64,000 bases of DNA, from assembly GCA_049303795.1 (NCBI GenBank), contig JBAQNM010000005.1:121597-185596 (forward strand). Direction: 5' to 3'. This document shows positions 19,664-37,444 of this stretch, in pieces. How positions within the stretch are numbered: position 1 is the first letter of the stretch; each line of letters starts with the position of its first letter. Below the pieces are notes generated by a model. That model was not told the DNA's origin and ran no database searches. It was given only the letters and a program-made list of their open reading frames with translations. Source of the DNA: Candidatus Moraniibacteriota bacterium (GTDB lineage: Bacteria; Patescibacteriota; Minisyncoccia; Moranbacterales; UBA2206). The position numbers were made by a program, and so were the translations under genes.

Positions 19664-21109
19664 ATGATAAAAATAGAAAAAAAATTAAAATATTCTAAAA
19701 TAGCTATCTTTCTTTTAGTTGTTTTCTTGTTCGCTACTTTCGCTTCCAATTCTGCCAATAATGCTAAGGCTGAAGATAATGATGCTGACTATGACGCTTA
19801 TAAAAAATATGAGCTTTATTTGAAATATCAAAAAAAACAGAACTACGAAAAATACGAAAAGTATAAAAAATATAAGAAGAAATATGGCTTCAAGAGCTCC
19901 TCTGAAAGAGCTAAGGCTAAGGAGGCCTATGACAAGTACAAACTTTACAAAAAAAGTCCTTCAAAATATCCAACCTATAAACAGTATTACGATCAATATA
20001 AGAAATATTCAAAATATAAAAAATACTATTCACCATACAAACAATATAGTCGCTATGGAAAATACGAAAAATATAATAAAAGTGAATATGACGCTGGAAA
20101 AAATTATGGTGGAAATGAATACAAAGAAGCGCATGCCCGCTATCTTAACAGCCAAGAAAACGGAGGTTTAGGTGAAGCTACTCTCGGAGGCGGAGCTCTG
20201 GGGCCAGATATTGCAGTTGGCATCTATAACTACACGAAATCAGATCTTCGAGATGAAACTTATATTCGAGTAAAAGCAACTAAGGACTACACCGTTAAAA
20301 ATGAATCTGGACAAGTATTGGCCAATATTCCAAAAGACACTTATACGCGCGTTCAATATATTTCAGATGGAGATTTGAAAGTTTATGAATCAATGGATGA
20401 GGTTAACGCTGGATCAGATGTTTATTTTGAATCAACCGATGGAAATAATTCTGATATTGTTTTTGACTTAAATCGTCCTTCTTCTGATTATGATCAGTAT
20501 CGTGGAAAAATAAAAGCCCATTTTTATGATAGTCCCGAAAGCGATGGCGATCGAATCTGGGTAATCAACACCCTTCCTTTGGAGCATTATGCTTGGGGAA
20601 TTGGAGAAATTACCGGAACCGGTGATACAGATTACAATAAAACAATGACTACCATGTTTCGCACTTATGGCTATTGGAAACTTCGCTGGAGCACGCAATA
20701 TATTCCACAAGGCTTTGTTGTTGTAAGTACACCTTCCAATCAAATCTATAATGGATACGATTGGGAAACAGCTCATCCTAATATAAAATCAGCTGCCGAA
20801 GACACCCAAGGGAAAATAATGATGTATGGCAGTGAAATCGCTCTTTCTCCTTATTCATCCTGGACCGATGGCCGAACAAGAAGTTTTGAAGAACGTTGGG
20901 GCTCAACACTCTATCCTTGGTGTCGATCAGTTAGCGATTCCTATGGAAAACATGCCACAAAAAGTACCGCTGAGTTAGAAGCTGAGGGAAATCATATGGT
21001 TGGTCTCAGCGCTCATGGCGCATTAGCCCTCGCCACTGATCATGGCTACAATTGGGAAAATATTCTAAGATATTATTTCTACAAAGTTAGATTCTTAAAA
21101 GCGTACTAA
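19664..21109 (+). CDS. secreted SpoIID/LytB-domain protein with N-terminal Lys/Tyr-rich low-complexity region
   Basis: Signal peptide, then about 100 aa of K/Y-rich low complexity (KYEKYKKYKKKYG...). The C-terminal region has SpoIID-like motifs (NQIYNGYD..., KIMMYGSEIALSPYSSWTDGRTRSFEERWGS). Confidence 0.6.
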   Translation: MIKIEKKLKYSKIAIFLLVVFLFATFASNSANNAKAEDNDADYDAYKKYELYLKYQKKQNYEKYEKYKKYKKKYGFKSSSERAKAKEAYDKYKLYKKSPSKYPTYKQYYDQYKKYSKYKKYYSPYKQYSRYGKYEKYNKSEYDAGKNYGGNEYKEAHARYLNSQENGGLGEATLGGGALGPDIAVGIYNYTKSDLRDETYIRVKATKDYTVKNESGQVLANIPKDTYTRVQYISDGDLKVYESMDEVNAGSDVYFESTDGNNSDIVFDLNRPSSDYDQYRGKIKAHFYDSPESDGDRIWVINTLPLEHYAWGIGEITGTGDTDYNKTMTTMFRTYGYWKLRWSTQYIPQGFVVVSTPSNQIYNGYDWETAHPNIKSAAEDTQGKIMMYGSEIALSPYSSWTDGRTRSFEERWGSTLYPWCRSVSDSYGKHATKSTAELEAEGNHMVGLSAHGALALATDHGYNWENILRYYFYKVRFLKAY

Positions 21110-21113
21110 AAAT

Positions 21114-21692
21114 ATGAAAAAGAGTCTTAAGATATTTATTTATATTTTCGCTTTGGCTCTTATTAGCTTAGCTATTTTTATTGGATTGATAGCTAAAAAT
21201 CGCTATTATGATAAACCTGAACCAGAAAAAAATCCAACGGAAAAAATTCTTTTTCAAGGAGAAAAAACTGAGAATAAAGACACAAATCCAAATGACACCC
21301 CGGGAGAATTTCTAGATCCGGAAGACAAAGAGGAAGACTTGGAAGAAGAAATGCAGTTAGAGAAAGACTTTGCTGAAAACAATACAGTTGAAAAAGAATC
21401 CTACTTGGAAATAAAAAAGGATGACTGTAAAAATAAATGTGCTGATTTTAAAGATGAAAAAGCTGATTTTCGTTATTGCCAAGAAGTCTGTGGTCTCGTT
21501 GAGCCTAAAAAAGAATCCTCCTCAGAGGAATGTGAAGATTTAGAAGACTTGGAAATGGATTATTGTTTGCGAGATTTTGCAATCTCTAAAAAGGACTATG
21601 AGCTTTGCGAAAAAATTGAAGATAAAAACATAAGTCTGAATTGTCAGAATCGCATCACAGAAGAAATCCTAGAAGAGCAGAAGAAATTATAA
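21114..21692 (+). CDS. membrane-anchored acidic Cys-rich protein, hypothetical
   Basis: N-terminal TM helix, acidic linker, eight Cys in four pairs (CKNKC, CQEVC, Cx10C, Cx11C). Confidence 0.45.
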   Translation: MKKSLKIFIYIFALALISLAIFIGLIAKNRYYDKPEPEKNPTEKILFQGEKTENKDTNPNDTPGEFLDPEDKEEDLEEEMQLEKDFAENNTVEKESYLEIKKDDCKNKCADFKDEKADFRYCQEVCGLVEPKKESSSEECEDLEDLEMDYCLRDFAISKKDYELCEKIEDKNISLNCQNRITEEILEEQKKL

Positions 21693-21704: not shown

Positions 21705-22958
21705 CTATTCTTTTCTTAGTGCTTCCATAGGACTTAATTGTGAGGCTTTGCGAGCAGGCCAATAACCAAAAATCATTCCCGTTCCGGCGGAAAAGCCCAG
21801 GCCGATTGTAGCTGACCACCAAGTGATGGGAAATTTTAAATTGAAACCATAGCTCACGGCGATTATTTCTCCGAGTTTGGAAATTCCAAAACCCAGTGCC
21901 AATCCGATAATCCCACCCAATAGTGTGATGAAAATTGCCTCAAAAAGAAACTGAAAAAGAATCTGCGAATTTTTCGCGCCGATTGATTTCTTTAGCCCAA
22001 TCTCAAATGTTCGTTCCGTCACTGAGACATACATCACATTCATAATCCCCACCCCTCCGACAATAAGTGAGATAGAAGTAAGCGCAATAAGAAGCAAATT
22101 AACTGAGAAAAAAACTTTATTTAGAATTTCCAAAACTTCCACGATTGAATTGACGGCAAAATCATCGTCGTCGGGATTTTCAATGTCATGCTGTACGCGA
22201 AGCACATCAATTGCCTCAGCAATAGTTAAATCTAATTTACTCATATCTTTAACATTAAAAATTGCCATTTGCAAATAATCAATTCCGGCTAATTTTTTCT
22301 GAACCGTGCGAAGCGGAATATAGGTTATTTGATCAAAATTAAAAGGCCCGGCTGCGCCTCTTTCTTTCAAAACTCCAATCACGCGATAAGTTTGACCCTT
22401 TATCTTCACCTCTTTTCCTACCGCCTCACCATCACCAAAAAAATCTTTTTTTGTTTCCGAACCCAATACCACAACCTGCCGGAGACTCTTATCATCATCC
22501 TCGCTAAACATCATCCCTTTTTCTATTTCTGTTTTTTTATCGACATCCGTCACGCTGGCTGTCGTGCCCATAATAATCACTTGTTTATTTTTATTCTCAT
22601 ATTTTATCACTTGTTGATTCATAATTGCAGCATACCAAGCTCCGACATTGGAAAGTTTGGCCACCGCCTCCATATCTTCCAATTTCAAAGTAGTGATTTG
22701 CATTCCACCCATTTGTCCACTGGCATTCTGGGTGGAAGTTTTGGAAACTTTCGGCACCTTAATTTCAATTTCAATAATGTCCGAGCCAAAAGAAGAAACC
22801 TGATCAACTAAAAAGCCTTTGACTCCTGAGCCAAAAGACAAAACTAAAATCACACTCACCACACCAATTACAATTCCCAGAAGCGACAAAAACGTCCGCC
22901 CTAAATTATTATGGATACTTTTGAAAGCTAATTTGATTGGAACTAAAAAATTATTCAT
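21705..22958 (-). CDS. ABC transporter permease, FtsX/MacB family
   Basis: 417 aa with an N-terminal TM, a large extracytoplasmic domain and three C-terminal TM helices (FtsX fold). Paralogue of the adjacent permease; 8-nt overlap. Confidence 0.8.
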   Translation of the reverse strand: MNNFLVPIKLAFKSIHNNLGRTFLSLLGIVIGVVSVILVLSFGSGVKGFLVDQVSSFGSDIIEIEIKVPKVSKTSTQNASGQMGGMQITTLKLEDMEAVAKLSNVGAWYAAIMNQQVIKYENKNKQVIIMGTTASVTDVDKKTEIEKGMMFSEDDDKSLRQVVVLGSETKKDFFGDGEAVGKEVKIKGQTYRVIGVLKERGAAGPFNFDQITYIPLRTVQKKLAGIDYLQMAIFNVKDMSKLDLTIAEAIDVLRVQHDIENPDDDDFAVNSIVEVLEILNKVFFSVNLLLIALTSISLIVGGVGIMNVMYVSVTERTFEIGLKKSIGAKNSQILFQFLFEAIFITLLGGIIGLALGFGISKLGEIIAVSYGFNLKFPITWWSATIGLGFSAGTGMIFGYWPARKASQLSPMEALRKE

Positions 22959-24198
22959 ATCTTAATGCTTCCATCGGACTAATCCTTGAAGCTTTTCCCG
23001 CAGGATAAATACCAAAAATTATTCCAATTGCAAAGGAAACTCCAATAGCTGCCACAATTGATTGCCAAGAAATTATAAAAGGCCAAACATATTGCAATGA
23101 TTGAATGATAATTGCCGTTAAGCCAGAAATCGCAATACCAATAATAATCCCGATTATTCCACCCAAAAAAGAAATAAAAGCTGATTCAATTAGAAATTGC
23201 GTCCAAACATCAGTGTTTTTTGCGCCAACTGCCTTTCGCAGTCCCACTTCCCTAATTCTTTGATTGACTGCCAAAAGCATTATGTTCATAATCCCCACTC
23301 CACCAACAATCAAAGAAATTGTTCCAATGGCTAACAAGAAATATCGAAGCACATCCGTTACTTGCTTAATTATCTCCACGGCTGAAGCCATGTCACGCAC
23401 AGAAAAATCATCATTCGCCGGATCATCAATGTCATGTTGTTCCCTAAGTGTTCGGGTGATATTTTCTTTGGCTAAAGAAATAAGGCTGGCATCTCTAACT
23501 TTAAGACGAATAAATCCTAAATGATCAATACCTAGAAGAATTTTTTGGGCAGTTTTCAAAGGAACAAAAATTGTATCGTCTTGGCTATTAACCCCAAAAC
23601 CAGATGAACCTCTTTTTTCCAAAACACCAATCACCGTAAAATTCTGATCCTTAATTTTTATCACCTTATTAAGTGGATTGTCTCCATCAAAAAGATCCTT
23701 TTTTAAATTAAACCCGATCACGACCTCACGCGACATATTAGTTTCTTCGTCTTCAGAGAAAAATCTACCCTCAGCTACTTTCGTATTTTCCACATCAATA
23801 TAACTGGCCGTTGCTCCCTGAAAAGAGGCCACGATATTTGTTCCGTCATACTCAGCTGTAGCGGTTCCTGAAACATAGCCAGCGCCAGCTGTCACTTCCG
23901 GCACATCCTTTCCATTTCGTAAAACTTCCAAATCATCATATTTCAAAGTTGTAATTGAAATTCCCATCGCAGTCGCTGGCGGGCCATTTTCATCTGACGC
24001 TCCCGGTAAAACACCGATTAAATTTGAACCAATGCCCGTAATTTGATCCAGAATCAATGCCTGCGCCGATTGCCCAATCGCCATAATAATAATCACCGAG
24101 GCCACCCCAATTATTATTCCTAGCATGGTCAAAAAAGAGCGAAACTTCGCCGCTAAGAGATACTTTAGAGAAATTTTAATAGGAGAAATTATGTGCAT
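22951..24198 (-). CDS. ABC transporter permease, FtsX/MacB family
   Basis: 415 aa, same topology as the adjacent permease and clear sequence similarity to it (e.g. shared MEALR C-terminus). Confidence 0.8.
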   Translation of the reverse strand: MHIISPIKISLKYLLAAKFRSFLTMLGIIIGVASVIIIMAIGQSAQALILDQITGIGSNLIGVLPGASDENGPPATAMGISITTLKYDDLEVLRNGKDVPEVTAGAGYVSGTATAEYDGTNIVASFQGATASYIDVENTKVAEGRFFSEDEETNMSREVVIGFNLKKDLFDGDNPLNKVIKIKDQNFTVIGVLEKRGSSGFGVNSQDDTIFVPLKTAQKILLGIDHLGFIRLKVRDASLISLAKENITRTLREQHDIDDPANDDFSVRDMASAVEIIKQVTDVLRYFLLAIGTISLIVGGVGIMNIMLLAVNQRIREVGLRKAVGAKNTDVWTQFLIESAFISFLGGIIGIIIGIAISGLTAIIIQSLQYVWPFIISWQSIVAAIGVSFAIGIIFGIYPAGKASRISPMEALRYE

Positions 24199-24299
24199 AA
24201 ATTTTATCTATATTAACTACCTACATTTGTCTTAGGGTTCCATACTCTCGCCAAATCAGCGGAACCATGGATCCATTAAAGGATTATATTATATAATTT

Positions 24300-25856
24300 T
24301 TATTCTGGCTTTTCAGCAATAACTAAGTAATAAGGTTGATCTTTAACTTCTTGATTTTTTAAATCTGTTTGAATTTCGATATTTATAAACCCAGCCTCTT
24401 CCAGCGTTTTCTTCATTAGCTCGTTTGCATCTTCAGCGCTTCTTAATTGGACGAATGGCAGATAATAATCATTATATTCAATAATGTCTATACCCTTTAT
24501 CCAAAATCCGGTTGTTAAATCAGAGAATCCTGCCACACCTTGATGACCGATTATAAATTTCTTTCCCGGCTTTAAGGCTCTGTAAATTTCCTGGCTGGTT
24601 TTTGGAAAATCAACATAAAAAACTAACTCAATCGCAAAGGCCCCATCAAAATAATTTTCTTTAAAAGGCAAATTGCTGACATCCCCCCTAATTAAATCTC
24701 GATTAAAATTTTTAACATTTCTTGATAAATCAATATTGATGCTTTTTTCAAATCCAAAATTCCTTTGGCCTCCGCCCATATTTAATACTTTCTCTTCTCC
24801 TGCAAAAATACCCGCTAATTTTTGAGTTAATTCTTCAACTGGTTGCCCAATTCTTGTGCTATTTTCATAATAATCTTCTTGGTTTTCCCAACTATCTCTT
24901 CCCCAATTAAAATAGGTATTAATACTTCCAGCCAATGGTCTTTCCTCAATAGCGTAGTTATGACTTACTGCCCCTTCAATTTTGTCAAAACCCAAAGGCA
25001 GTCTTGAAAAATTCAATAAACCATGCCCCCGAAACGCCTCATGTAAATCTTGGTTCATTACATTTTTTTTCATTTCACTAAATTCTGCCGTTGCAAATAA
25101 ATCTTCATTTTTTCTGATTTCAGAAAACTTATAATTCAGATATCTATAAAGGCATCTAAACTTATCATCCCTTTTGGAATCTTTCCAATTAAAACGATCG
25201 CTTCGCGATATATCTTTTTCTTCAAAGGAAGGCAGGGCTTTTTTCACAAAAGCAAAGATGCCATCATTTATTTCATCATCACTTAAATTCTTGCAATGAT
25301 CCATATTTTCTTTTCTTTTTTTAGCAAAATATTCCTCTCTAATATCCAGCCCGGCACGTTCAAAAAAACCTGAGTAAAACTCCTTTTTTTTCTCCAAACT
25401 ATCGGCATAAACTCCTTCGGCAATCTCAGTTACTTTTTTTTCTGCATCAGTAGCTTCAAATCCTATTCTCTCACCTACTATTGAAGAAATACTAGTAATA
25501 ATGCCCTTGCTTTCTGGACAAAAAGAATTCCTACCAGTAATAATATAATGTAATTCTGACAACTCCAAAACAGACAGTTTTCTAAGTTCCCTTATCGCTT
25601 CTTCTTTCGTTATTTTATGGACTGGTAAAATTTTTTCCAAAGTTTCTATCAACTTATGTACCTCTGGCCTATCTTTATATTTATCTTTATCCAAAAAGTT
25701 GCCTCTTTCCTCCGGACTAGATTCTTTTTCTTCTAGCTTTTCGTCAGCTGTTTTTTGGTTTTTAACTATTTCAGTTGGTAATTCATTAGCATCAGATCTT
25801 TTTTTATTTCTTTTGCTAACAGAGGAAATTGTCCATTTTTCAAAAATTGATCCCAT
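24300..25856 (-). CDS. hypothetical protein with C-terminal class I SAM-dependent methyltransferase-like domain
   Basis: C-terminal VLNMGGGQRNFG (motif I-like), IRGDVSNLPFKENYFDGAFAIELVFY (motif II-like) and ALKPGKKFII (motif III-like). The N-terminal 300 aa are unrecognised. No TM or signal. Sits between the ABC ATPase and permease genes. Confidence 0.5.
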   Translation of the reverse strand: MGSIFEKWTISSVSKRNKKRSDANELPTEIVKNQKTADEKLEEKESSPEERGNFLDKDKYKDRPEVHKLIETLEKILPVHKITKEEAIRELRKLSVLELSELHYIITGRNSFCPESKGIITSISSIVGERIGFEATDAEKKVTEIAEGVYADSLEKKKEFYSGFFERAGLDIREEYFAKKRKENMDHCKNLSDDEINDGIFAFVKKALPSFEEKDISRSDRFNWKDSKRDDKFRCLYRYLNYKFSEIRKNEDLFATAEFSEMKKNVMNQDLHEAFRGHGLLNFSRLPLGFDKIEGAVSHNYAIEERPLAGSINTYFNWGRDSWENQEDYYENSTRIGQPVEELTQKLAGIFAGEEKVLNMGGGQRNFGFEKSINIDLSRNVKNFNRDLIRGDVSNLPFKENYFDGAFAIELVFYVDFPKTSQEIYRALKPGKKFIIGHQGVAGFSDLTTGFWIKGIDIIEYNDYYLPFVQLRSAEDANELMKKTLEEAGFINIEIQTDLKNQEVKDQPYYLVIAEKPE

Positions 25857-25885
25857 ATTTCGATCTTCCTTAACTTAATTAAATT

Positions 25886-26623
25886 TTATTTCAATATTTC
25901 TTCCGTCCCATCCGCAATCCTTCTGTTCTTCACCGAATCATCAGCGACGATTTCTCCATCTTTCATATAGATAATTCTCTTAGCGTGTTCGGCGGTATAA
26001 GTTTCGTGAGTGACAAGAATAATTGTTCGTCCCATATTATTAAGATCCTGCAAGATTTTCATCACTTGTAGCCCAGATTTTGAATCTAAATTTCCAGTTG
26101 GCTCATCGGCAAAAATAATTTCCGGATCATTGACTAGGGCGCGCGCAATCGCCACTCTTTGTTTTTCTCCACCGGAGAGTTGATTGGAAAGATATTTTTC
26201 ACGATGCTCCATTCCAACAGATTTCAAAGCTCGCATCACTTTCTCTTTATTTTTTCCATCTGGTTTCGAATCATACAAAAGCGGAAGCTCCACATTTTCA
26301 AAAACCGAAGTTCGAGGAAGTAGATTAAATGATTGAAAAACAAAACCAATTTTTTTGTTTCTAATATTCGCCAAAGTGTCATCATCAAAATCAGCCGTGT
26401 CTTTTCCTTCTAAGAGATATTCTCCTTCCGTCGGACGATCAAGGAGCCCAACCACTTGCATCAAAGTTGATTTACCACTTCCACTTGGTCCCATAATCGA
26501 AAGGAACTCGCCCTTTTCGACAACAAAACTCGCATTGCAAAGCGCCGGCGTTTTCACCCCCTCATTTTCATAAGTCTTACAAAGATTTTGGATTTGGATT
26601 AAAGACATAGGATTATTTCTCAC
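25886..26623 (-). CDS. ABC transporter ATP-binding protein (MacB/LolD-type)
   Basis: Walker [11 protein letters not shown]-loop, signature [15 protein letters not shown], Walker B IIFADEPT. Confidence 0.9.
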
Positions 26624-27611
26624 TCGAAAGTATTATAATATCTTCCCCACCATTCAGTCCTGAAATAATTTCCACCATCCCTTCATCGCCTCTTGCTCCA
26701 GTTTTCACGTTGATTTTTTCTATGACATTTTCCGCTTTCAAAATTTCCACATATTCTTGATCTCCGTCATTTTTCACGGCGCGATAGGGAATTGTCACAA
26801 CACCATCTTTTTGAAAAATATTAATATCAGCATCAGCACTCATTCCAATTTTCAATCTCTCATCAAGCTTTTTCAATTTTATTTTAGCTTTATAATAAAC
26901 CACGTCTTGAATTACAGTTGAAGCCGGCTCAATTTCAAAGATTTCCCCTTCCAACTTTTCATCACTTAGCAAGGCATCAAAAGCTATTTCGGCTTTTTGG
27001 CCGATTTTCACATCTACAATGTCAGACTCTGGAACATCGATTTGAATATATGGCTCACCTAAACTAGACACGCTCAAAACAGGACTATTAGCTATGACAT
27101 TTTCCCCAAGCTCTGAATTCTTTTTTGTCACAATTCCATCCATGGGAGAATAAAGACTTGTTTCTCCGATATTTTTAATGACTTCTTCAACCATCTCTTG
27201 AGCTTTTTTTATTTGCGCCCTCTGTGCATTTTTTTGATGATAACTGTAGACATCCTCCTTCTTTTTCATATCCAAAAGTAACTTCTTTTGCACCTCTACC
27301 TCGTAATTAGCTTTGGATAATTCATCTTCCAATGTTCCCTTGTCAATTGCTGCGATTTTTTGATCTTTCTTCACCTGATCTCCCACATTCACTAAACGAG
27401 CTTCAATTTTTCCACTTAATTTAAAAGATAGATTTGCTTCAATCTCAGGAACAATTTCGCCCGTTGCCGAAACTGTCTTAGCAATTGTTCCCACCTTGGC
27501 CGTTTCAGTTGTATAGGTTATTTTTTTTGGTTGTGATTTCCAATAATAGATTCCGCCAATAATCAAAACCAGCAAAATCAAAATCACATAAGTTTTTTTC
27601 TTTTTGAACAT
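26613..27611 (-). CDS. HlyD/MacA-family periplasmic adaptor (membrane fusion) protein
   Basis: N-terminal TM anchor, coiled-coil hairpin and lipoyl/beta-barrel segments. Overlaps the ATPase gene by 11 nt. Confidence 0.75.
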   Translation of the reverse strand: MFKKKKTYVILILLVLIIGGIYYWKSQPKKITYTTETAKVGTIAKTVSATGEIVPEIEANLSFKLSGKIEARLVNVGDQVKKDQKIAAIDKGTLEDELSKANYEVEVQKKLLLDMKKKEDVYSYHQKNAQRAQIKKAQEMVEEVIKNIGETSLYSPMDGIVTKKNSELGENVIANSPVLSVSSLGEPYIQIDVPESDIVDVKIGQKAEIAFDALLSDEKLEGEIFEIEPASTVIQDVVYYKAKIKLKKLDERLKIGMSADADINIFQKDGVVTIPYRAVKNDGDQEYVEILKAENVIEKINVKTGARGDEGMVEIISGLNGGEDIIILSSEK

Positions 27612-28079: not shown

Positions 28080-31000
28080 TTAATACTCGGTTTTTGCTAA
28101 TTTTTGAATTGCCTTAATGTTTCTAATTATTATTTGATATTTAAGCGGTATTTCTATATTTTCATCTGCCAAGCTACCAATGATTGTTCGTATGGCCGAA
28201 AAGCTATCCATCCTCCCCAAGCTCACTATCCACTCTTTACCAAGCTTCCATTCTATTTTTCGTTTGATAGCGTTCTTGATAAATCCTCTTTCTTTTTTGG
28301 TTTCCAAAACTAAATCCAGAAACTCTGACAAAAGCTCTCGTCCTTTTTTTCTATTTTCAAAAAGGTTTTTAAAAAATTCGGTTTCTTTAGGATTAAATCG
28401 CAAATACATATTTCGATCAATCACTCCAATACCCTGTCTGCCATCCGAATCTTCATTGATCATATAGTTTCCCCTGTGCGGGTCAGAATGAAAAATTGCT
28501 GTCGCATTATCTTTGAATTCGGGCAATTCCAATTGGCCAAGTTGATACTGGAAAAAATTTTTCAATGTCTCTACGGCCTCTATTTTGCTTTGACTTGGAA
28601 TATCTTTGGCCTCCAGGAATTTTCTGGCCGTTGTTCCAAGCGCTACTTCCTCTGATTTAAATTTTATCTTATCCAACATAACCGCTGGAGCATATAATCT
28701 ATTTCCGCCTTCTAAACCTTCGGAAAAATTTTCAATCACTTCTCGAAAATCAGAATCATCTTTTTCAAAATCCGTATAACTTATATCGCCAACACACCAA
28801 TTATTCCCCAAGTCATTTAAAATCTTCCCCCTTCTAGCTAAATTTTTATTATCCCTGCTGGACTTAGGATCGCTCTCAATTTCATCCAAGGCGGTAAATA
28901 AAGTTTTATAATTTGCTCCGACTATTGCCAAAGCATTAGGATTGAGCAATTTAACAACCACTTCCTTTCCAGGTGGATTTTTCAGAGTAGCAAAATAAGT
29001 GGTAAATAAACTTCCAGCTCCTGCTTTTTTTCCGATTCTATCGATATTTTTTATATATTCAATGACTTCTTGATCGCCATTTTGAAATCTGGTTAAAAGA
29101 TTCTCCCAAAAAATCAACTTGTTCACTAAGACATTAGAATCCAAGCAACTAGCTAATCGTTCCTGCACTTCTGGTTTAAAATCCATCATCTCCACCGAAC
29201 TTTGCATAATTCGAGTGGTCAGTGCATTTGTTTCCGCTGCCTTAATCAATCCTTCCAGACCAGGATCAATTTTTTTTATCCTGTCATTATCACTTTCTTC
29301 CATTCTTTCTCTTTCTGTCTCATCTTCTTCTAAAAACCCATGACTAAGTTTTTCTAAACAGGAATCGTATATTTCATCGCCCCTTTTGGCAATTTTAGCC
29401 ATTGGGCAATTGGGCGAATAGCGATAATTATGCCCAAACTTAACAATTTTCTTATTTGAACTTTTCATTATTCTTTCTAGCTTGCTTCTTGAAATTTCAA
29501 GATACCCACCTTTTTTATTTTTGTTCTTCTCCTTTTCCTTACTGTTTTCTAACGACTTTTTAAGCTCTTTATACTCTCCCATAATCTCTCCGTAGTCAAC
29601 AGCATTTTCATCCAGCGCAGAAAAAAGAAGCGGAGCCAGCATTGAGCACAAAGGAAAGCTCAAATAATGTCCCTCGGATTTAATACAAAGTTTTTTCACT
29701 AATTCCGCCAAAAAACTATCTTTTAAATTAAGCGATTTAACTGCCAATTCTCCCAGAGTATTCCTTTTTTCTTCGCTTGAAAAAGCACCATCAGAGTCGT
29801 TTAATAGCTTATGAACAATCCCCGCTCTTTCCATAAAACTCAAACTTTTCAATTCTTCGAAAAATTCCCTAAGTGTTTTAAATGAGCTTTTTGCCTCGTC
29901 ATTAACTAAAAATTTATTCTCTGTCTGATCAAACGAAACACTCCTATCCATTTTTAAAATAAAAAAAGCTCTCTCTGTTTCTTCAGTTTTAAAAGCATCT
30001 TGGCAGGTTCTTAACCAAAATTTAGCTAAGTTAGTGCTGATTTCTTTTTGACTTTTTTTATCCCCTAGGCACGTTTTTAAAATACTAATAAAACCTGAAT
30101 GGCCCAAAAAATCGCCTGCCATAGCAGTAACGGCATCCCCCTGAGCAATCCTATCTAATATTTTTGAACCGTTTAGATAATCATCCACCTTAATATTCAT
30201 TTTTTCCTTAAAAAATATATACTCGTCTATCGTTTCAATTTGCTCTGCAATCATCACCATCCCTTCGGGACCAATTTGATCGTAATTTTTGATAAGATGT
30301 TCAGTTTTATCAGCCAAAGAAACCTCTGGAAATTCAAGATACCTCTTGTTGATCTCCCGCAAGATATTTTTCTTAAACAACGAATTCGGAAAATATTTTT
30401 CGATAAACTGATACGCCATATCGTATTCTTCTTTTTTAATTCCTTTTTGAATAATTTTCAGAAAATCTTCTCGGGCAGTTGAAAAAAAGATATTATTAAA
30501 AATTTTTTCCGAAAATAAATCTATTTGCTCCAATATCTGATTATCGTCATCCAAAAGAGCCTTCAATCTTTTTTCGAGATTATTATAAAGTTCTTCTAAA
30601 TTTTCAAAATTACTCTCTTTATTTCCTTCCACTATTAAATCTTTAATTAATGGAAGTTCTGAAAATCTGGTATAATTTTTTATCTTAACCTCAACATTTA
30701 CCCCATCCTCCGTCCTCTTATTATTTCTTATTTCCGTGTTTTTGATTATGGTGGCAAGGACTATCTGTTTAACTACTTTCTCATCATCACTTCTATTCCC
30801 TATAAATAATAGCGGCCTAAGAATTTTCTCGAGTTCTTCCTTAGAAAATACAACATTATTGGCCTTAGCCTCAATTGCAAATTCATTCAAAGCCTTTTCA
30901 ATAATTTCATAAAACTCATTTGTATCCTGAGGAAAGAATAATATTGCTAAGTTTAGCTTCCAATTTAATTTAATTTTTTCCTTATTTATGGCGTGATCTA

Positions 31001-33092
31001 TTGTTTCGGAAATGCCATTTTGATCGTTTTCTAAAATATCCTTTTCTAACTGTAAAAAAACAGTTTCTAAGATTTCTCTTCTATTCTTATCATCCAATTT
31101 AGGATGCTCTAAGACCTCCCCTGCCTGACGCAAAAATCCATCCAAGTCTGCTTGACCAAACCTTAAGCAATAACTTAAATTACCATATACGGCGTTTTTA
31201 TAATATTTAATTAGCTCCTCTAGACTTAGCGGTGGTTCCTCATGCTTGGCATCTTCAGGAAAAATTTCTTCAAAAGCCTCCTTTCCCAACATTCCACTCT
31301 CCGGAAAAACAAAAAGTCTTCCCTCGATTATTTCCTTGGTTTTATCTCTCTCCGTTTTTTTCTCATCAAGCAAGTAATGATGCCACCTTGCCCCATCTCC
31401 ATTTTCTCTTAACAGCCCTTTTTCCTTGGCTTTTTCAAAAAACTCCTTTATTTTTTTTCGCTTTTCCACTTTCTCTCCCTTTGTCATCTTATTTCTTGTT
31501 GCCAGGTAATTCAGGTCAACATAACTCATTAAAATATCAGCTATAAATCTGTTACTTGAAATTTCTCTAATAATTTGTGAATGATTTATTTTCACCAATT
31601 CTTCTAAAAAACTTTCTTCATCGACTGAAATAGCCCATTCAATTTTACCTTCAAATTTTTCATTTAAAATATTTAAATGTTTAGAAAAAAATTCCAAAAA
31701 ATTTTTTGCTACATATTCAGGCAGTTCTTCGTGCTTATCCAAGGGAGATGAGATACCGAAAAAATCCACATCAAACACAATCCTACTGATTTCAGCGTAT
31801 TTTTCTTGAACTAAATTATCAAAATTATTTGAAATTTTATGAAAATTTTCTTGGCTCCTAAGCAAGTCTTGCATTTCTTTTTGATAGTACATGCCCCTCG
31901 ATTGCACTAGTGTACTTAAGAAAAAATCAACCTCTTCGCCTTTCCCCATTCTTTCTTGAACAAAAGAAAAGAAGGCTCGACTGAAAATCGCTCCAATTTT
32001 TTTCTCGTTTTCATCATAAGCATATTCTTGATGGGCTAAATATCTGCCAAAAACATCTCGTAGGTCTTTGGCATGCAACTTAGATATGGCAACCTTGACC
32101 GTTTCAAAAATTATTTTTTCATCTTTATCAGTTATTTCTGCTTGAATTTTCTGATAACCAGCCGTCCTTAAGAGTTTCGGGTAATCTTCTTTTATATTGG
32201 CAAATATTCCCAAAACCGCTTCCAGGTTTGATTTTTGACATTCTCTTGATAACTCTTCTGGTATGGGAGTAGGCGCTTTAGCACTGGTTTCGAAATCTTT
32301 CACATAGTGCAATCCCATCATCCCTGACGCGCGAGAATCTCCAGTCTGATGAATAGCGCCACGGCCTTCTGGAGAAATTTTCTTTATCCCTTCAAAACCA
32401 AAAGTGCTAAGCCCAACCTTCTCTAAATAATAAGGAGCTGAAAAATCCGCCGCGATTTCATGCGACCAATTAATTCCCAAGCTTCCCGTTTTTTTCTGAT
32501 TTTTGCGATGATTGTCATTCTCAGCTTGCTCAGAAGTTTTATGAACCAAATGCCCCACTTCATGCCCCAAAACGTAACCAATTTCGTCCAGCGAATCAAG
32601 TTTGTTTATAAGAGCCTGTGAAATAAAAATAGTTCCATCTGGATAAACAAAACCTCCAGCTTCTTCCATTTTGTTTATTATCACCACCTTAGCTTCCCCT
32701 GCATTTCTTCCTACTAGCATTTTATCCACGATGTCCTGCAAAATTCTGGTTCTGTCCGTTCCCCATTCCAGATCCTTGGTGCGACTAAGATAATCAAATT
32801 CTTTTTGTATTTCTTCTGTATGGTCTTCTTCAGAACCATCTTCAAATTTAAACCTAACCTCTCTTTGAATCTTCAATTTTTTTCCATTCTCAAAATCATC
32901 TTTTTCGTTTCTCATGCTCCTCGTCCTTTCCAAAAAACTTTCCAACTCAAGCGACTGATTCCTTAACCTATCCTTCAGTTCTCTGGTCTTTCTTTTTTCA
33001 AACAAAACACCCGCCGGTACAATATCCGCTTTTTTAGAAATCAACTCTGATTGAGGTTTTCCATTTGGGATAATATATTTAAGCTCTCCCAT
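28080..33092 (-). CDS. giant cytoplasmic multidomain protein: N-terminal M48-type HExxH zinc-metalloprotease-like domain, about 1100-aa helical region, C-terminal ABC1/UbiB-family atypical kinase domain
   Basis: 1670 aa with no TM or signal. FVYPDGTIFISQALINKLDSLDEIGYVLGHEVGHLVHK matches the M48 (HtpX/Ste24) consensus. Near the C-terminus, GKKAGAGSLFTTYFATLK...EVVVKLLNP and IFHSDPHRGNYMI...GRQGIGVIDRN match the ABC1/UbiB motifs. Confidence 0.6.
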   Translation of the reverse strand: MGELKYIIPNGKPQSELISKKADIVPAGVLFEKRKTRELKDRLRNQSLELESFLERTRSMRNEKDDFENGKKLKIQREVRFKFEDGSEEDHTEEIQKEFDYLSRTKDLEWGTDRTRILQDIVDKMLVGRNAGEAKVVIINKMEEAGGFVYPDGTIFISQALINKLDSLDEIGYVLGHEVGHLVHKTSEQAENDNHRKNQKKTGSLGINWSHEIAADFSAPYYLEKVGLSTFGFEGIKKISPEGRGAIHQTGDSRASGMMGLHYVKDFETSAKAPTPIPEELSRECQKSNLEAVLGIFANIKEDYPKLLRTAGYQKIQAEITDKDEKIIFETVKVAISKLHAKDLRDVFGRYLAHQEYAYDENEKKIGAIFSRAFFSFVQERMGKGEEVDFFLSTLVQSRGMYYQKEMQDLLRSQENFHKISNNFDNLVQEKYAEISRIVFDVDFFGISSPLDKHEELPEYVAKNFLEFFSKHLNILNEKFEGKIEWAISVDEESFLEELVKINHSQIIREISSNRFIADILMSYVDLNYLATRNKMTKGEKVEKRKKIKEFFEKAKEKGLLRENGDGARWHHYLLDEKKTERDKTKEIIEGRLFVFPESGMLGKEAFEEIFPEDAKHEEPPLSLEELIKYYKNAVYGNLSYCLRFGQADLDGFLRQAGEVLEHPKLDDKNRREILETVFLQLEKDILENDQNGISETIDHAINKEKIKLNWKLNLAILFFPQDTNEFYEIIEKALNEFAIEAKANNVVFSKEELEKILRPLLFIGNRSDDEKVVKQIVLATIIKNTEIRNNKRTEDGVNVEVKIKNYTRFSELPLIKDLIVEGNKESNFENLEELYNNLEKRLKALLDDDNQILEQIDLFSEKIFNNIFFSTAREDFLKIIQKGIKKEEYDMAYQFIEKYFPNSLFKKNILREINKRYLEFPEVSLADKTEHLIKNYDQIGPEGMVMIAEQIETIDEYIFFKEKMNIKVDDYLNGSKILDRIAQGDAVTAMAGDFLGHSGFISILKTCLGDKKSQKEISTNLAKFWLRTCQDAFKTEETERAFFILKMDRSVSFDQTENKFLVNDEAKSSFKTLREFFEELKSLSFMERAGIVHKLLNDSDGAFSSEEKRNTLGELAVKSLNLKDSFLAELVKKLCIKSEGHYLSFPLCSMLAPLLFSALDENAVDYGEIMGEYKELKKSLENSKEKEKNKNKKGGYLEISRSKLERIMKSSNKKIVKFGHNYRYSPNCPMAKIAKRGDEIYDSCLEKLSHGFLEEDETERERMEESDNDRIKKIDPGLEGLIKAAETNALTTRIMQSSVEMMDFKPEVQERLASCLDSNVLVNKLIFWENLLTRFQNGDQEVIEYIKNIDRIGKKAGAGSLFTTYFATLKNPPGKEVVVKLLNPNALAIVGANYKTLFTALDEIESDPKSSRDNKNLARRGKILNDLGNNWCVGDISYTDFEKDDSDFREVIENFSEGLEGGNRLYAPAVMLDKIKFKSEEVALGTTARKFLEAKDIPSQSKIEAVETLKNFFQYQLGQLELPEFKDNATAIFHSDPHRGNYMINEDSDGRQGIGVIDRNMYLRFNPKETEFFKNLFENRKKGRELLSEFLDLVLETKKERGFIKNAIKRKIEWKLGKEWIVSLGRMDSFSAIRTIIGSLADENIEIPLKYQIIIRNIKAIQKLAKTEY

Positions 33093-34800
33093 TTTTTAAA
33101 TCAATAATATTTAACTGTATCTTTTTATTTCCATTCCAGCTATCTTCTTGCAAATTAAACACTATGTCTATATTATCACCTTTTTTCAAGTCAGAAAATT
33201 TCTCTCCCAGCTTAAAAGCAATTGCCTCGAAAAGCTTAGGACTATTATCAGTGGCTTTTAATGTTAATTTTAAATGCTTACTACCATTACCAACTGCTCG
33301 CACATCACTAATTTGCATGTCTTTCATCATAAAAACCGGCTCCTTGTTTCCCATGCCAAAAGGCTCCATTTTTTTCAATTCCTCCATAAATTCCCAGTTT
33401 ATTTCTGAAGCCCTAATTTCCAAATCAATCAATAGTCTGGAAATTGTTTCCTTATTTTCAAGCTCTGCTTCAATTAATTCTGTCATTTTTGTGCAAAATT
33501 TTTCGAAATTTTCAGGAATAACTCGCACCCCGGCCGCTTGAGAATGTCCACCAAATTTAGAAAGCAAACTGGCACACTCCTCAATCTTTTCAATAATATT
33601 TAATTCCGGGATACTGCGCAATGATCCGACATACTCATCATCTTGAGCCTGAAAAACCACCACTGGCTTTCCGAATTTATCCACTGCTTTTCCAGCAACA
33701 AGCCCAAGGATTCCCACTGGCCAATTCGGATTTGCAACATAAATAAATTTTTTATCACTAAAATCACGTAGAGCAGTTTCCTCAATTTCCTTTATAATTT
33801 CCGTTGTCATCTTTTGCCTCTCTAAATTTTTAGCTTCAACATCCAAGGCCATCAGTCGAGCCTCCACACTATTCTTTTCCGCAATTAACCGATAAGAAAC
33901 GCTAGCATGATCCATTCTTCCAGCAGCATTAATCCTTGGAGCTATTTGAAAAGCAATTTTATGTGTATTAGGAATGCTATTTTCTGAAATTTCAATTCGG
34001 CCAACTTTAAACATTTCCTGCAATCCCACTCGACGCGTTTTTGATAAAACCACTAAGCCATATTTTACTAAAATTCGATTCTCACTCAAAAGTGGCACGC
34101 AATCTGCTACGGTTCCAATCGCCACTAAATCCAAAAACCACTTCAGTTGATCGTTTTTTTCCGGCATCATTTCTTGATATAATCCTTGCGCCAGCTTAAA
34201 TGCCACTCCCACGCCAGCTAAATCAGTAAATGCAAAGCCAGAATTTTCCAGATGAGGATTAATCACTGCCACAGCGCTTGGTAGAGCTTCCGGAATATGA
34301 TGATGATCTGTTATAATCACATCGATTCCTAAACTTCTAGCCTTTTCTACTTCGAAAATATTTGTAATTCCAGAATCAACAGTGATAATCAACGTCACTC
34401 CATCCTTTGCTAAAAACTCAATCGCTTTTTCATTCATACCATAACCCTCTAATTGACGATCAGGAATATAGTAAGTTAAATTGGAGAGTCCCAACTCTGA
34501 AAGAGCTTCAAACATTAAAACCGTTGCTGTCACACCATCAGCATCATAGTCACCAAAAATAACGATTCGTTCTTTTTGTTCTTTAGCTAAAACAATACGC
34601 GCTACAGCCTCACGCATACCTGAAACATTTTCAACATTTGAAAGATTGGCATAATCAGAGCTAAAAAAATCTTCGATTTCTTTTTGTGAAAAAACTCCAC
34701 GATCAGAAAGCAACGCTAAAACAATTGGGTCATATTTTTGCAAAATGATCTCATCAAATTTGATATTCTTTTTTTCTCTCAACTCCCATTTTTTTGGCAT
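33079..34800 (-). CDS. recJ: single-stranded-DNA-specific exonuclease RecJ
   Basis: DHH motifs (IFGDYDADGVT, VIITDHHH), DHHA1 domain and C-terminal OB fold. 573 aa. Confidence 0.85.
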   Translation of the reverse strand: MPKKWELREKKNIKFDEIILQKYDPIVLALLSDRGVFSQKEIEDFFSSDYANLSNVENVSGMREAVARIVLAKEQKERIVIFGDYDADGVTATVLMFEALSELGLSNLTYYIPDRQLEGYGMNEKAIEFLAKDGVTLIITVDSGITNIFEVEKARSLGIDVIITDHHHIPEALPSAVAVINPHLENSGFAFTDLAGVGVAFKLAQGLYQEMMPEKNDQLKWFLDLVAIGTVADCVPLLSENRILVKYGLVVLSKTRRVGLQEMFKVGRIEISENSIPNTHKIAFQIAPRINAAGRMDHASVSYRLIAEKNSVEARLMALDVEAKNLERQKMTTEIIKEIEETALRDFSDKKFIYVANPNWPVGILGLVAGKAVDKFGKPVVVFQAQDDEYVGSLRSIPELNIIEKIEECASLLSKFGGHSQAAGVRVIPENFEKFCTKMTELIEAELENKETISRLLIDLEIRASEINWEFMEELKKMEPFGMGNKEPVFMMKDMQISDVRAVGNGSKHLKLTLKATDNSPKLFEAIAFKLGEKFSDLKKGDNIDIVFNLQEDSWNGNKKIQLNIIDLKNGRA

Positions 34801-34809
34801 TTATTTATT

Positions 34810-35370
34810 TCACCCGCATTTCGGACAAATTATTTTTGCGTTAAATTCTCCCTTCTCGAGATCAACAACTTTCAAGACGACAACGATTTCTTCCTGACAA
34901 TCAGGACACCTCAAGCCTTCTTTTAATTTCAAATCATTACTTAAGCGACTAGCATCCATTTCGACACTATTCAATTTCAAAGAATACGTAGCTGAATCAA
35001 ATAATGCATTTACTTGAGTCACGACTTCTTTAGGCGTAGTCATGCCCATTACGAAAAAATTTTTTATTCCCATCTTTAAAGCTTTTTCATGATCCTCTTC
35101 GCGCCCCATGTGCGACGACATGACAATAGGGATTCCGCTTGTAGAAATATTTTTACTTAAACCCTCCTTTAATCCAAAACCATCCATACGTGGCATCATA
35201 ATCCCGGTAAAAATAATATCGGGAATCTCCTTTGTTGCCTTATCCATACCTTCAACTCCATCAGTCGCCTCAATCACTTCATAACCTTCGCTTTTGAAAA
35301 CATCGGCATATACGCTCCTAATCGATTCATCGTCATCAACAATTAATATTTTACGCTTTGTTTTTTCCAT
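34810..35370 (-). CDS. atypical orphan response-regulator receiver domain fused to a C-terminal C4 zinc ribbon
   Basis: REC fold with the acidic pocket (VDDDES), but the phospho-acceptor position aligns to Gly (DIIFTGIMMPRMDG versus consensus llDxxMPxmdG). The C-terminus has CPDC...CPKCG. No histidine kinase gene nearby. Confidence 0.65.
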   Translation of the reverse strand: MEKTKRKILIVDDDESIRSVYADVFKSEGYEVIEATDGVEGMDKATKEIPDIIFTGIMMPRMDGFGLKEGLSKNISTSGIPIVMSSHMGREEDHEKALKMGIKNFFVMGMTTPKEVVTQVNALFDSATYSLKLNSVEMDASRLSNDLKLKEGLRCPDCQEEIVVVLKVVDLEKGEFNAKIICPKCG

Positions 35371-35380
35371 TTTATTTAAT

Positions 35381-37444
35381 TTAAATAATTATTTTCACAT
35401 CGACTGCGATAGCCTCTTTCTTATTATTATAAATCAAAAGCGGATTAATATCGAATTCTAAGACGCTATCTATTTCTGAAGAAAAATCACCCAATGCCAA
35501 AATAATATTATTAATCTCTGCTAAATTGTAGGTCTTTTGTCCACGTGTTTCACGAAACAAGAATCCCAGCTTTCCTGACTGCAAAATTCTTGAAATTTCT
35601 TGCTCTGAAAATGGCGGGATAAACATTTCGGCAATTTTAAATATCTCAGTGTAAATTCCTCCCAAACCACAAAGTATTACCGGACCAAATGTAGCATCTT
35701 TCTTAATACCTAAAATCAATTCCGTTCCATGCGCCAACATTGGCTGAATAATTAATTTAGCACCAGGAAAATTATTGCGCATTTTATCGAAAGCTGTTTT
35801 TAAATCTGCTTGATTTTTAATATCCAAAATCAATCCCTGCTTATCAGTTTTATGCAACACCGCGTCACTGTCAACCTTCATAACAACCGGAAAATTATTC
35901 AACATTGGCAATTCCGCGCCTGCTTCAATTTCGATCACTTCAACAGTTTTTATTCCATACATATCCATAATTTCTCGACTTTCAGAAAAATATAATGCTG
36001 ATCTATTTTCATTTTTGGCATTTTTAATTATCTCTGATATTTTTCGATGCCTTTCTTCGTTAATATTTCTTTTTTTAATATTTACCCTTTCTATTTGAAA
36101 ATCATTCCAACGAGAATAACCGTCAACAGCGATCACAGCCGAATCTGGAAAACTAAAGTTACATACACCATTTTGTCTAAGTTTTTCAATCCCCCGCTCC
36201 ACCTTTTCTCCGCCCAAAAAAACAGCCGCTATAGTCTTGTCGGTTTTTTCTTTAAAATTTATTATCTCCTGAGCAATTTCATCCACTGGTGTTTGCTCCT
36301 GAGGAGTTAGCAGGCAAATTATACTACCGATTTCTTCGATTTTAGAAATTACTTCGAGTACATTTTTATAACGATCGGCATGTGCATCACCCAAAAGATC
36401 AATTGGATTTTCCACTGATGATTCCTCAGGAAGAAATTCTCGTAATTTATTTTTTGTTTCTTCAGTTAAGATTGCTAATTGAATCTTTTTTCCACTAAAA
36501 GCATCAGAAATTAGCACACCAGCTCCACCGGCGTTAGTAATGATTACGACCTTTTTATTTTGAATTTCTCGAGAAAAACTAATAAAAGTTACCAAATCAA
36601 AAAATTCCTCCAAATTATCAGCCCGTAAAACACCAGCTTTTTCAAAAACTGCGGAAACAACTTCATCATTTCCAGCTAATGCGCCTGTGTGGGAGCTAAT
36701 AGCTTTTTGAGTTTTTTCATTTTTTCCCGCTTTCAAAATTACAATCGGCTTTACTCGCGAAACTCTTTGAGCGATTTCAATGAATTTTTTCCCCTCTTTT
36801 ATTCCTTCCAAATACATTCCGATTACTTTAGTATTTTCATCTTGCGCTAGATATTCCAACATTTCCGCTTCTGTAATTTGCATCTTATTTCCAATAGAAA
36901 CAATATTAGAAAATTTTATTCCTTCTTTTTTCGCTTTATCCATAAGAGCCACAGCTAAAGCACCAGACTGAGAAATAAAAGAAATATTCCCCGCTTCAGG
37001 CATTCCTCCAGCAAAAGAAGCATTCAGTCTTAATTGCGGGACGATAAAACCTAAGCAATTTGGACCCAAAATATTGAGATTATTTTCCCTAGCAATCTGC
37101 GCCAAAACTTCTTCCTGTTTTTTCCCCTCATCTCCAATCTCTGAAAATCCTGCTGAAATAACCACGTAGTTCTTTATTTTTTTTGCATTATTCTGAATTT
37201 CCTGATTCACAAATTTTGCCGGAATAGCTATGATCGCCAAATCAATTTCAGCCTCTATTTCATCTAGAGCTTTATAACACTTCTTGCCAAAAATTTCATC
37301 GTATTTTGGATTAACCAAATACACCTCACCTTCAAAGCCAAGCTCCAAGATGTTCCTCGCCATCACAGTACCAATCTTTCCAACTTCTTCCGAAGCACCA
37401 ATAATAGCAATTGATTTTGGTTTAAAAAGTTTTTCTAAATTCAT
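35381..37444 (-). CDS. acetyl-CoA synthetase (ADP-forming), fused alpha/beta subunits
   Basis: N-terminal CoA-binding Rossmann (IAIIGASEEVGKIG), succinyl-CoA-synthetase-like flavodoxin domain, C-terminal ATP-grasp domain. 687 aa. Confidence 0.75.
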   Translation of the reverse strand: MNLEKLFKPKSIAIIGASEEVGKIGTVMARNILELGFEGEVYLVNPKYDEIFGKKCYKALDEIEAEIDLAIIAIPAKFVNQEIQNNAKKIKNYVVISAGFSEIGDEGKKQEEVLAQIARENNLNILGPNCLGFIVPQLRLNASFAGGMPEAGNISFISQSGALAVALMDKAKKEGIKFSNIVSIGNKMQITEAEMLEYLAQDENTKVIGMYLEGIKEGKKFIEIAQRVSRVKPIVILKAGKNEKTQKAISSHTGALAGNDEVVSAVFEKAGVLRADNLEEFFDLVTFISFSREIQNKKVVIITNAGGAGVLISDAFSGKKIQLAILTEETKNKLREFLPEESSVENPIDLLGDAHADRYKNVLEVISKIEEIGSIICLLTPQEQTPVDEIAQEIINFKEKTDKTIAAVFLGGEKVERGIEKLRQNGVCNFSFPDSAVIAVDGYSRWNDFQIERVNIKKRNINEERHRKISEIIKNAKNENRSALYFSESREIMDMYGIKTVEVIEIEAGAELPMLNNFPVVMKVDSDAVLHKTDKQGLILDIKNQADLKTAFDKMRNNFPGAKLIIQPMLAHGTELILGIKKDATFGPVILCGLGGIYTEIFKIAEMFIPPFSEQEISRILQSGKLGFLFRETRGQKTYNLAEINNIILALGDFSSEIDSVLEFDINPLLIYNNKKEAIAVDVKIII

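Follow-up and report, generated by a model that had tools for sequence, protein, structure and literature searches.

What does a single gene of 1670 codons in the genome of a Candidatus Moraniibacteriota bacterium encode, and what might the parts of its product do together? The gene lies on the minus strand at 28080..33092 of the window (the whole stretch of 64,000 nucleotides (nt) of contig JBAQNM010000005.1, assembly GCA_049303795.1, that was analysed here), and an initial annotation made from the letters alone had read it as a soluble giant protein joining an M48-type zinc protease to an ABC1/UbiB atypical kinase domain through a long helical region. This core reading was borne out by hidden Markov models (HMMs), hhalign alignments, fold searches with AlphaFold2 (AF2) models and residue conservation. 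The protein is a soluble three-part chain of the candidate phyla radiation (CPR, or Patescibacteria), made up of an M48 protease, a helical scaffold of about 980 amino acids (aa) and a UbiB/ABC1 domain. As to what it does, we propose tentatively, and with a probability of roughly 0.35, that it may be a self-contained nucleotide-controlled protease in which a latent M48 domain would be gated or fed by an ATP-driven UbiB module via the scaffold.

One soluble polypeptide

The open reading frame (ORF) listing and translation gave one intact frame, uninterrupted across the whole interval as had been claimed, with 1670 codons followed by a stop at 28080-28082. A partial NCBI protein that is 100% identical carries the name 'M48 family metalloprotease, partial [Candidatus Moraniibacteriota bacterium]'. 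The product has no signal peptide and no transmembrane (TM) helix (the highest Kyte-Doolittle score for any 19-residue window is 1.38), and among the 117 full-length members of the family described below, to which all counts out of 117 and conservation percentages refer, a signal-peptide-like N-terminus was seen in none and a borderline hydrophobic window in one. The lack of TM helices had been singled out as unusual for an M48 protease; the absence is real, for the protein and for the family, but it is not an anomaly, because the nearest M48 relatives (3c37 and BepA) are themselves soluble domains.

The N-terminal M48 protease domain

Residues 70-300 (32193..32885, minus strand, like all features of the gene given below) make up an M48 zinc-metalloprotease domain of the soluble BepA/3c37 type. 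Pfam Peptidase_M48 (PF01435) matches aa 114-185 with an E-value of 5e-9 (36.7 bits against a cut-off of 20.3) and matches 17 of 17 first-round relatives (best E 1.5e-14). A family profile compared with the Protein Data Bank (PDB) found the soluble M48 peptidase 3c37 at E 1.6e-11 and BepA at E 3e-6, in alignments that span both HExxH and the downstream Glu helix, hhalign to Escherichia coli BepA gave 94.6% probability with the motifs in register, and a fold search with the AF2 model recovered the M48 protease fold for this domain. The M48 assignment therefore stands on the Pfam score, the PDB matches, the alignment to BepA and the fold search alike.

The HEVGH motif (H177, E178 and H181: two zinc ligands and the catalytic Glu) is encoded at 32550..32564 (32556-32570 had been given originally), aligns to HEISH of BepA and has each of the three residues conserved in 99% of members. 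The third zinc ligand is E212, in the M48 'ExxxD' helix that is represented here by HEIAAD (H211, E212 and D216; 32445..32462) and aligns to the NEQEAD segment of BepA and to 3c37; conservation is 100% for E212, 99% for D216 and 91% for H211. Further downstream RGAIHQTGDSR (32331..32363), with R244, H248 and R254 conserved at 91%, 94% and 99%, is on alignment and spacing the probable counterpart of the M48 'THPxxxxR' motif, since hhalign pairs R244 with BepA R234 and the His and Arg are six positions apart, as are H246 and R252 in BepA (THPLPESR). BepA consists of an M48 domain and a helical domain, and its His-246, as a fourth zinc ligand, keeps the enzyme latent (bioRxiv 10.1101/2020.07.07.192476). 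We infer that H248 is a candidate equivalent of this 'histidine switch', a correspondence that has to be extrapolated because the hhalign alignment ends ten residues earlier, at R244/R234. Judged by its motifs, the N-terminal domain thus appears to be complete as an M48 zinc metalloprotease of the soluble kind represented by BepA and 3c37.

The C-terminal UbiB/ABC1 domain

The other end of the chain, aa 1276-1670 (28083..29267), is a UbiB/ABC1 (COQ8-like) atypical kinase-fold domain that includes a KxGQ-type N-terminal extension; the assignment made originally holds, but the size does not, as the domain covers about 390 aa and not about 300. Pfam ABC1 (PF03109) matches aa 1357-1578 with E 3.3e-5 and a marginal 23.6 bits against a cut-off of 22.9, so that Peptidase_M48 and ABC1 both score above their curated cut-offs, the latter narrowly; ABC1 also matches 10 of 17 aligned relatives (best E 3.2e-17), a set that includes two truncated sequences without the domain. 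In an hhalign comparison of the family with E. coli UbiB (93% probability, E 3e-7, aa 1279-1574) every motif fell in register, and the AF2-model fold search recovered a UbiB-type fold, kinase core and N-terminal KxGQ domain together, with COQ8A and Rv3197 as the nearest structural relatives. It is on hhalign and the fold search, together with the ABC1 scores of the relatives, that the UbiB assignment rests, because searches of PDB by sequence did not reach significance: phmmer with the C-terminal 400 aa as a single sequence gave no matches, and with the family profile the kinase part stayed below significance (ABC1 7cy2 at E 0.95, the B-Raf Gly-loop at E 0.2). Orthology to UbiB/COQ8 proper is ruled out by the UbiB equivalog model of NCBIfam, TIGR01982, which scores 16.1 bits against a cut-off of 487.55, and no ubiquinone genes were found among the approximately 20 window ORFs that were domain-scanned.

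The hhalign pairs (family/UbiB) are RxLQ/KFGQ, GGGSL/ASASI, VVIK..P/VVIK..P, HSDPHxGN/HADMHPGN and IDR/IDCG. In the window protein the counterpart of 'KxGQ' is RIMQ (R1294-x-x-Q1297; 29202..29213), aligned to IKFGQ of E. coli UbiB. The literal KxGQ is not kept in the family, which has RxLQ, but the Gln and a basic residue are: Q1297 is present in 117 of 117 members, residue 1294 is an Arg in 109 of them and a Lys in six, and the Gly position is taken by L or M. The nucleotide-binding loop is Gly-rich (GAGS, G1358-S1361; 29010..29021) and aligns to ASAS of E. coli UbiB; its consensus is GGGS (G in 112, G in 98 with A in 16, G in 116 and S in 115), and of the Ala-rich AAAS loop of UbiB/COQ8, which is absent from the family, the Ser alone is held in common. 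The beta3 lysine, K1381 (28950..28952) in VVVKLLNP, aligns to VVIKVIRP of UbiB and is K in 99 members (85%) and R in 18 (15%). The catalytic loop HSDPHRGN (28467..28490) aligns to HADMHPGN of UbiB, with D1537 in 113 members (97%), G1541 in 115 and N1542 in 115 (98%), and the metal-binding Asp of the DFG-equivalent, D1559 in 'IDR' (D1559-R1560; 28413..28418, aligned to IDCG of UbiB), is present in 114 (97%), with R1560 in 113. The three stretches quoted in the initial annotation are all there: EVVVKLLNP at aa 1377-1385, GRQGIGVIDRN at aa 1551-1561 and IFHSDPHRGN, for which the position is 28467-28496 (28448-28480 had been given). With this set of residues the UbiB-like domain is almost certainly nucleotide-binding and catalytically competent. 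As a separate observation, in one subgroup (P0009 and P0011), which may include the Nomurabacteria locus L006, the C-lobe is enlarged by some 70 inserted residues just ahead of the last conserved helix, seen at columns ~2110-2190 of the family alignment A1.

The loop bears directly on which reaction the domain would catalyse. COQ8 and UbiB are lipid- and phenol-activated ATPases in which the KxGQ Gln holds the water nucleophile, and in COQ8A Ala-to-Gly loop mutants, combined with KxGQ changes, cis-autophosphorylation is greatly raised and ATPase activity is abolished (bioRxiv 10.1101/149823). Given the behaviour of those mutants, the Gly-rich loop of the family favours a reading in which the C-terminal domain is a true phosphotransferase that would phosphorylate itself or its substrates, thereby switching the M48 domain on or marking substrates for it. 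The family has a canonical Gly-rich loop, GGGS (G in 112, 98 and 116 of 117 members), where UbiB proteins have AAAS; it has Arg for the KxGQ Lys and Leu or Met for the Gly; the basic beta3 residue, the catalytic Asp, the Asn and the metal-binding Asp are all conserved; and a plant member of the UbiB family, ABC1K6, has been reported to be a Mn2+-dependent protein kinase (PMC8956952). Against this stands the KxGQ Gln, conserved without exception, which in COQ8 positions the hydrolytic water and whose domain there occludes the cleft for a protein substrate. A phosphotransferase is the main alternative to the ATPase of our proposal, although one that we hold only tentatively.

The helical middle

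Between the two domains, from aa ~300 to 1275, the chain is all-helical over about 980 aa (about 1100 had been estimated) and, as originally noted, belongs to no recognized family; nor did it have a specific structural neighbour. It is not uniform. The first part, aa 301-900 (30393..32192), is variable (0.5-1.5 bits per column), and the second, aa 901-1170 (29583..30392), is a conserved all-alpha domain without a Pfam family (1.0-2.2 bits, mostly at least 1.5) whose conserved elements are LRxINKxYL, GxEG...AEQI, W1026, L1097, G1102 and FPxxxMLxPLLFxALD. When this second part was modelled jointly with the UbiB domain the predicted template modelling score (pTM) was 0.74 and the predicted local distance difference test (pLDDT) value was mostly 80-95; in the model the conserved helical domain packs against the UbiB domain. 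The remainder, aa 1171-1275 (29268..29582), comprises a charged low-complexity linker (KEKEKNKNKK) and a pre-kinase segment, with pLDDT 41-63 over much of its length and conservation falling to 0.57 bits at aa 1171-1200. The N-terminal tail of the protein (aa 1-69; 32886..33092) is likewise variable (0.2-1.0 bits per column, pLDDT 24-67) and does not align among relatives.

The fusion is obligate

An exhaustive HMMER profile search (query aa 95-1290, 1.84 billion representatives) found 142 representatives at E<=1e-30, from which it is clear that the word-indexed protein search, which yielded 17 relatives for the single sequence and 13 for a profile, falls far short of the true size of the family. 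The full-length relatives retrieved, 116 in number and 1477-1787 aa long, all carry both the M48 and the UbiB domain as judged by family HMMs, and in 113 of them the middle region was matched as well, the shorter hits being fragments; the fusion is therefore an obligate feature of the family. Members are far apart in sequence, with a median pairwise identity of 26% and no more than 31% identity to the window protein for any member except the identical NCBI entry, and across this distance the catalytic residues of HExxH and HxDxHxGN are kept at 97-99%, which indicates that both active sites are under selection.

These numbers also dispose of the idea, raised as a caution at the outset, that the ORF might be a chimera of two genes joined by a frameshift or by the assembly, or else a decaying pseudogene. 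Apart from the metagenome-type source of the sequence nothing speaks for it, and the same architecture recurs in 116 independent full-length representatives from different assemblies, related genomes have single ORFs (of 1485-1696 aa) and the catalytic residues are conserved. As both domains stand in one ORF in 116 of 116 relatives the chimera idea fails, and an artefact of any of these kinds is hardly conceivable.

The named members belong to Moraniibacteriota, Daviesbacteria, Levyibacteriota, Nomurabacteria and 'Patescibacteria group', all of them CPR and spanning both major CPR branches. The suggestion that the protein is specific to reduced-genome lineages is consistent with this, every named member being CPR, but taxon labels are missing for most relatives, and the occurrence of the family is rare and patchy. 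Proteobacterial labels (Gammaproteobacteria, Ectothiorhodospiraceae, Pseudomonadales) on the GTDB loci L001, L002, L005 and L008 are probably wrong, because these loci have 34-37% GC and the cysteinyl-tRNA synthetase of L008, the one locus checked, is only 37% identical to E. coli CysS. A genome scan with a DNA pattern present in 39 of 117 members found eight loci; extrapolation from the eight loci and this pattern coverage gives about 24 of 185,579 GTDB species as carriers, so that the family, though widely spread, is uncommon.

This distribution invites the question of whether the protein might be an effector or toxin exported by an episymbiont against its host cell, or an anti-phage defence protein. 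CPR bacteria are known to live attached to host cells, and a large multi-domain protein combining a protease with a kinase fold, rare, patchily distributed and fast evolving (median identity 26%), would fit such a role. On the other hand none of the 117 members has a signal peptide, the neighbouring genes are ordinary housekeeping genes and not genes for secretion, immunity or mobile elements, and architecture and length are strictly conserved, unlike those of polymorphic toxins. The PADLOC defence models gave no match at E<=0.1, on which ground the defence-system idea was rejected, and no family member was found on viral contigs. We therefore consider an effector or defence role very improbable. 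A phage-borne origin was also rejected, as the viral contigs matched the generic M48 core only (aa 141-233). The viral matches form a set of their own: 45 IMG/VR contigs (L014-L058) encode a near-identical short M48-core match with 31% identity to aa 141-233, apparently a single M48-like gene that recurs in phages and has no relation to the giant family.

A proposed mechanism

How might the three parts work together? In the scheme that we favour, as the most economical one, the UbiB module would act as an ATPase like its characterized relatives, with a cycle of ATP and ADP driving long-range conformational gating, and may bind or extract hydrophobic ligands at a membrane surface. There is a precedent in COQ8, which helps to extract lipid intermediates from membranes and chaperones them, ATP hydrolysis gating a ligand pocket by a long-range change of conformation (PMC13418538). 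The helical scaffold would relay this cycle to the M48 domain, which, as in BepA, would be latent by default, with H248 as the fourth zinc ligand and the helical domain capping the site. Proteins or peptides that are hydrophobic or associated with membranes would thus be cleaved from the cytoplasmic side under the control of ATP. The logic would be akin to that of FtsH, which likewise unites an ATPase and a zinc protease in a single polypeptide, although the parts of the two are unrelated. As was suggested originally, the protein might be a signalling or quality-control machine. We prefer the reading as a gated protease because the parts have been identified, the two active sites are conserved together, the fusion is obligate, the conserved half of the helical region co-folds with the UbiB domain in the model and there is no export signal.

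Several points weigh against it. The coupling of M48 to UbiB is deduced from their fusion and co-conservation only, and the hhalign alignment stops short of the position at which H248 would be equivalent to BepA H246. Where UbiB and COQ8 have an Ala-rich nucleotide loop, that of the family is rich in Gly. CPR bacteria do not, to our knowledge, make quinones, which bears on what the UbiB module could bind. No conserved gene neighbourhood hinting at substrates was seen at the seven related loci inspected, and a family as rare as this one (~24 of 185,579 species) cannot serve a core housekeeping function.

Genomic setting

The gene overlaps the upstream recJ homologue (33079..34800, minus strand; domains DHH, DHHA1 and RecJ_OB) by 14 nt (33079..33092). 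Downstream on the same strand, after a 29-nt gap, follow genes for RNase H (rnhA), an HlyD-like protein, an ABC ATPase, a methyltransferase and two MacB/FtsX permeases. The ORF listing and domain scan thus agree with the initial annotation on the overlap and on the co-directional rnhA and ABC exporter genes. Co-transcription with recJ and rnhA, which it had thought probable, is plausible here, a scan for terminator-like sites between recJ, the giant gene and rnhA having found none, but the linkage is absent from all seven related loci whose neighbours were inspected. At those loci the neighbours differ and include genes for tRNA synthetases, RecO, PIN, TsaD, glyoxalases and major facilitator superfamily (MFS) transporters. 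There being no conserved operon partner among the seven loci, the recJ/rnhA linkage says nothing about function and was rejected as a clue to it.

Transporter genes nevertheless occur nearby in some cases. In the window a MacAB-like efflux cluster (21705..27611, minus strand) lies directly downstream of the giant gene and rnhA and consists of the HlyD-type adaptor, the ABC ATPase and the tandem pair of MacB/FtsX permeases, a series broken by a protein of 518 aa with a methyltransferase domain; that it stands beside a gene for a UbiB domain whose structural relatives include the macrolide-binding Rv3197 is probably a coincidence. Three related loci have a gene for an MFS transporter, co-directional with the giant gene, 1-2.5 kb further downstream (L006 13666-14928, L011 12471-13778 and L012 12014-13111), a weak recurrence.

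It is here that a role in the handling of prenyl or host lipids has to be considered. The UbiB module would then bind a polyprenyl or other lipid (for example an undecaprenyl-linked or scavenged one) and the M48 domain would trim an attached peptide or protein in the manner of Ste24, giving the protein a part in envelope or lipid metabolism and not in general quality control. Such a role fits the ligands of the proteins that are structurally closest to the C-terminal domain, COQ8A binding isoprenoid-phenol intermediates and Rv3197 being reported to bind macrolides (PMC13418538; PMC6208485), as do the transporter genes downstream at several loci, namely MFS in L006, L011 and L012 and the MacAB-like pump in the window. 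This transporter linkage is loose, however, and confined to a minority of loci, and the TIGR01982 score (16 bits against 487) means that the protein is no UbiB orthologue, so that we regard dedicated lipid handling as unlikely.

Other features of the window may be recorded briefly. It has 35% GC and nearly all of its genes on one strand, and an Rfam scan of it found nothing relevant, only one tRNA. The sole clear plus-strand gene pair (19664..21109 and 21114..21692; 481 aa and 192 aa), for which no Pfam match was found, coincides with the stretch at 20-22 kb where GC and AT skew are locally reversed, and could have arisen by insertion or inversion. Another large and uncharacterized protein, of 1195 aa, is encoded at 60142..63729 (minus strand) and has no Pfam match at E<=1e-5. 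The region upstream of recJ (34810..37444, minus strand) encodes a response-regulator receiver protein of 186 aa that stands alone and a 687-aa protein resembling ADP-forming acetyl-CoA synthetase (domains CoA_binding, Succ_CoA_lig and ATP-grasp_5), with a PfkB kinase further upstream.

Novelty and significance

The initial annotation knew of no described soluble fusion of a protease, a scaffold and an ABC1 kinase, and literature searches on M48 and ABC1 in Patescibacteria and on UbiB in CPR likewise found nothing on such a protein. Both enzyme families are known, and NCBI names relatives of the protein 'M48 family metalloprotease'; what is new to the literature searched is that they are combined, by way of a helical scaffold of about 980 aa and with changes to the UbiB signature, in a lineage for which quinone synthesis is not known. 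UbiB/ABC1 proteins form an ancient family with links to disease (COQ8A to ataxia, COQ8B to nephrotic syndrome). The role of UbiB outside coenzyme Q synthesis is still unclear, and an obligate fusion to a protease is a rare hint at what the module may be coupled to. For CPR biology the family means one more large, conserved and uncharacterized enzyme in genomes that encode very few proteins for regulation or quality control. Should proteolysis turn out to depend on ATP, the protein would exemplify a protease design not based on AAA+ modules, and as both domains are well-understood folds with clear active-site residues the idea is directly testable with recombinant protein.

Comparison with known systems

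The closest parallel for the protease end is provided by E. coli BepA (YfgC) and the Geobacter protein Q74D82 (PDB 3c37), which have the same HExxH, Glu ligand and ExxxD helix in register; with BepA the giant protein has in common a helical domain directly following the protease, which in BepA is composed of tetratricopeptide repeats (TPR), and probably also an H(x5)R motif that would take in the 'histidine switch' position. The differences are considerable. BepA is a periplasmic protein of 487 aa with a signal peptide and works independently of ATP, whereas the giant protein lacks a signal peptide and ends in a UbiB domain, has a helical region of about 980 aa that is not recognizably TPR and has a deletion of ~25-35 residues between the HExxH and Glu helices. 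The HtpX and Ste24 subfamilies are membrane-embedded, unlike the giant protein with its lack of TM helices.

At the other end, COQ8A/ADCK3, Coq8p and E. coli UbiB align with the family over [KR]xxQ, the xxxS loop, VxxK...P, HxDxHxGN and the metal-binding Asp, but the giant family has RxLQ for KxGQ, GGGS for AAAS and 'IDR' for the DFG-type motif, and its UbiB domain has no TM anchor and is fused to a protease and a scaffold. The mycobacterial ABC1 proteins Rv3197 and MSMEG_1954, at 13-15% identity, are stand-alone proteins solved as chains of ~310-400 residues with neither protease nor scaffold.

The likeness to FtsH is confined to the principle of joining an HExxH zinc protease, in a single polypeptide that acts from the cytoplasmic side, to a module that hydrolyses nucleotides, which for the giant protein is a prediction. 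The folds have nothing in common (AAA+ as against kinase-like, M41 as against M48), and FtsH is a membrane-anchored hexamer; for the giant protein, ATP-dependent proteolysis is a proposal.

The two families of the fusion also meet as separate proteins. Plastoglobules and cyanoglobules carry an M48 protease side by side with ABC1 proteins (PMC8956952, PMC12223511, PMC8702529). In plant plastoglobules these are PGM48 with ABC1K1/3/6 and in cyanobacterial lipid droplets sll1280 with slr1919 and sll0005, in each case a TM-less M48 protein and UbiB-family proteins at the same lipid surface; the comparison is at the family level, and the partners there are separate polypeptides on the quinone- or tocopherol-rich droplets of phototrophs. 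No evidence was found for direct functional coupling of the M48 and ABC1 proteins of plastoglobules or cyanoglobules. Oma1 (M48) and COQ8/ADCK (UbiB) are both mitochondrial. In its widest form, which we consider rather doubtful, our proposal would make the giant protein the representative of a new class of energy-dependent protease, in which a UbiB kinase-fold ATPase and not an AAA+ ring gates a latent M48 domain through the helical scaffold or feeds it with hydrophobic substrates. By extension, the M48 and UbiB/ABC1 proteins that occur as separate chains on plastoglobules, on cyanoglobules and in mitochondria would be functionally coupled too. As the same two families co-reside on the lipid droplets of plastids and cyanobacteria and are here joined in one chain, the fusion is a possible 'Rosetta stone' for them.

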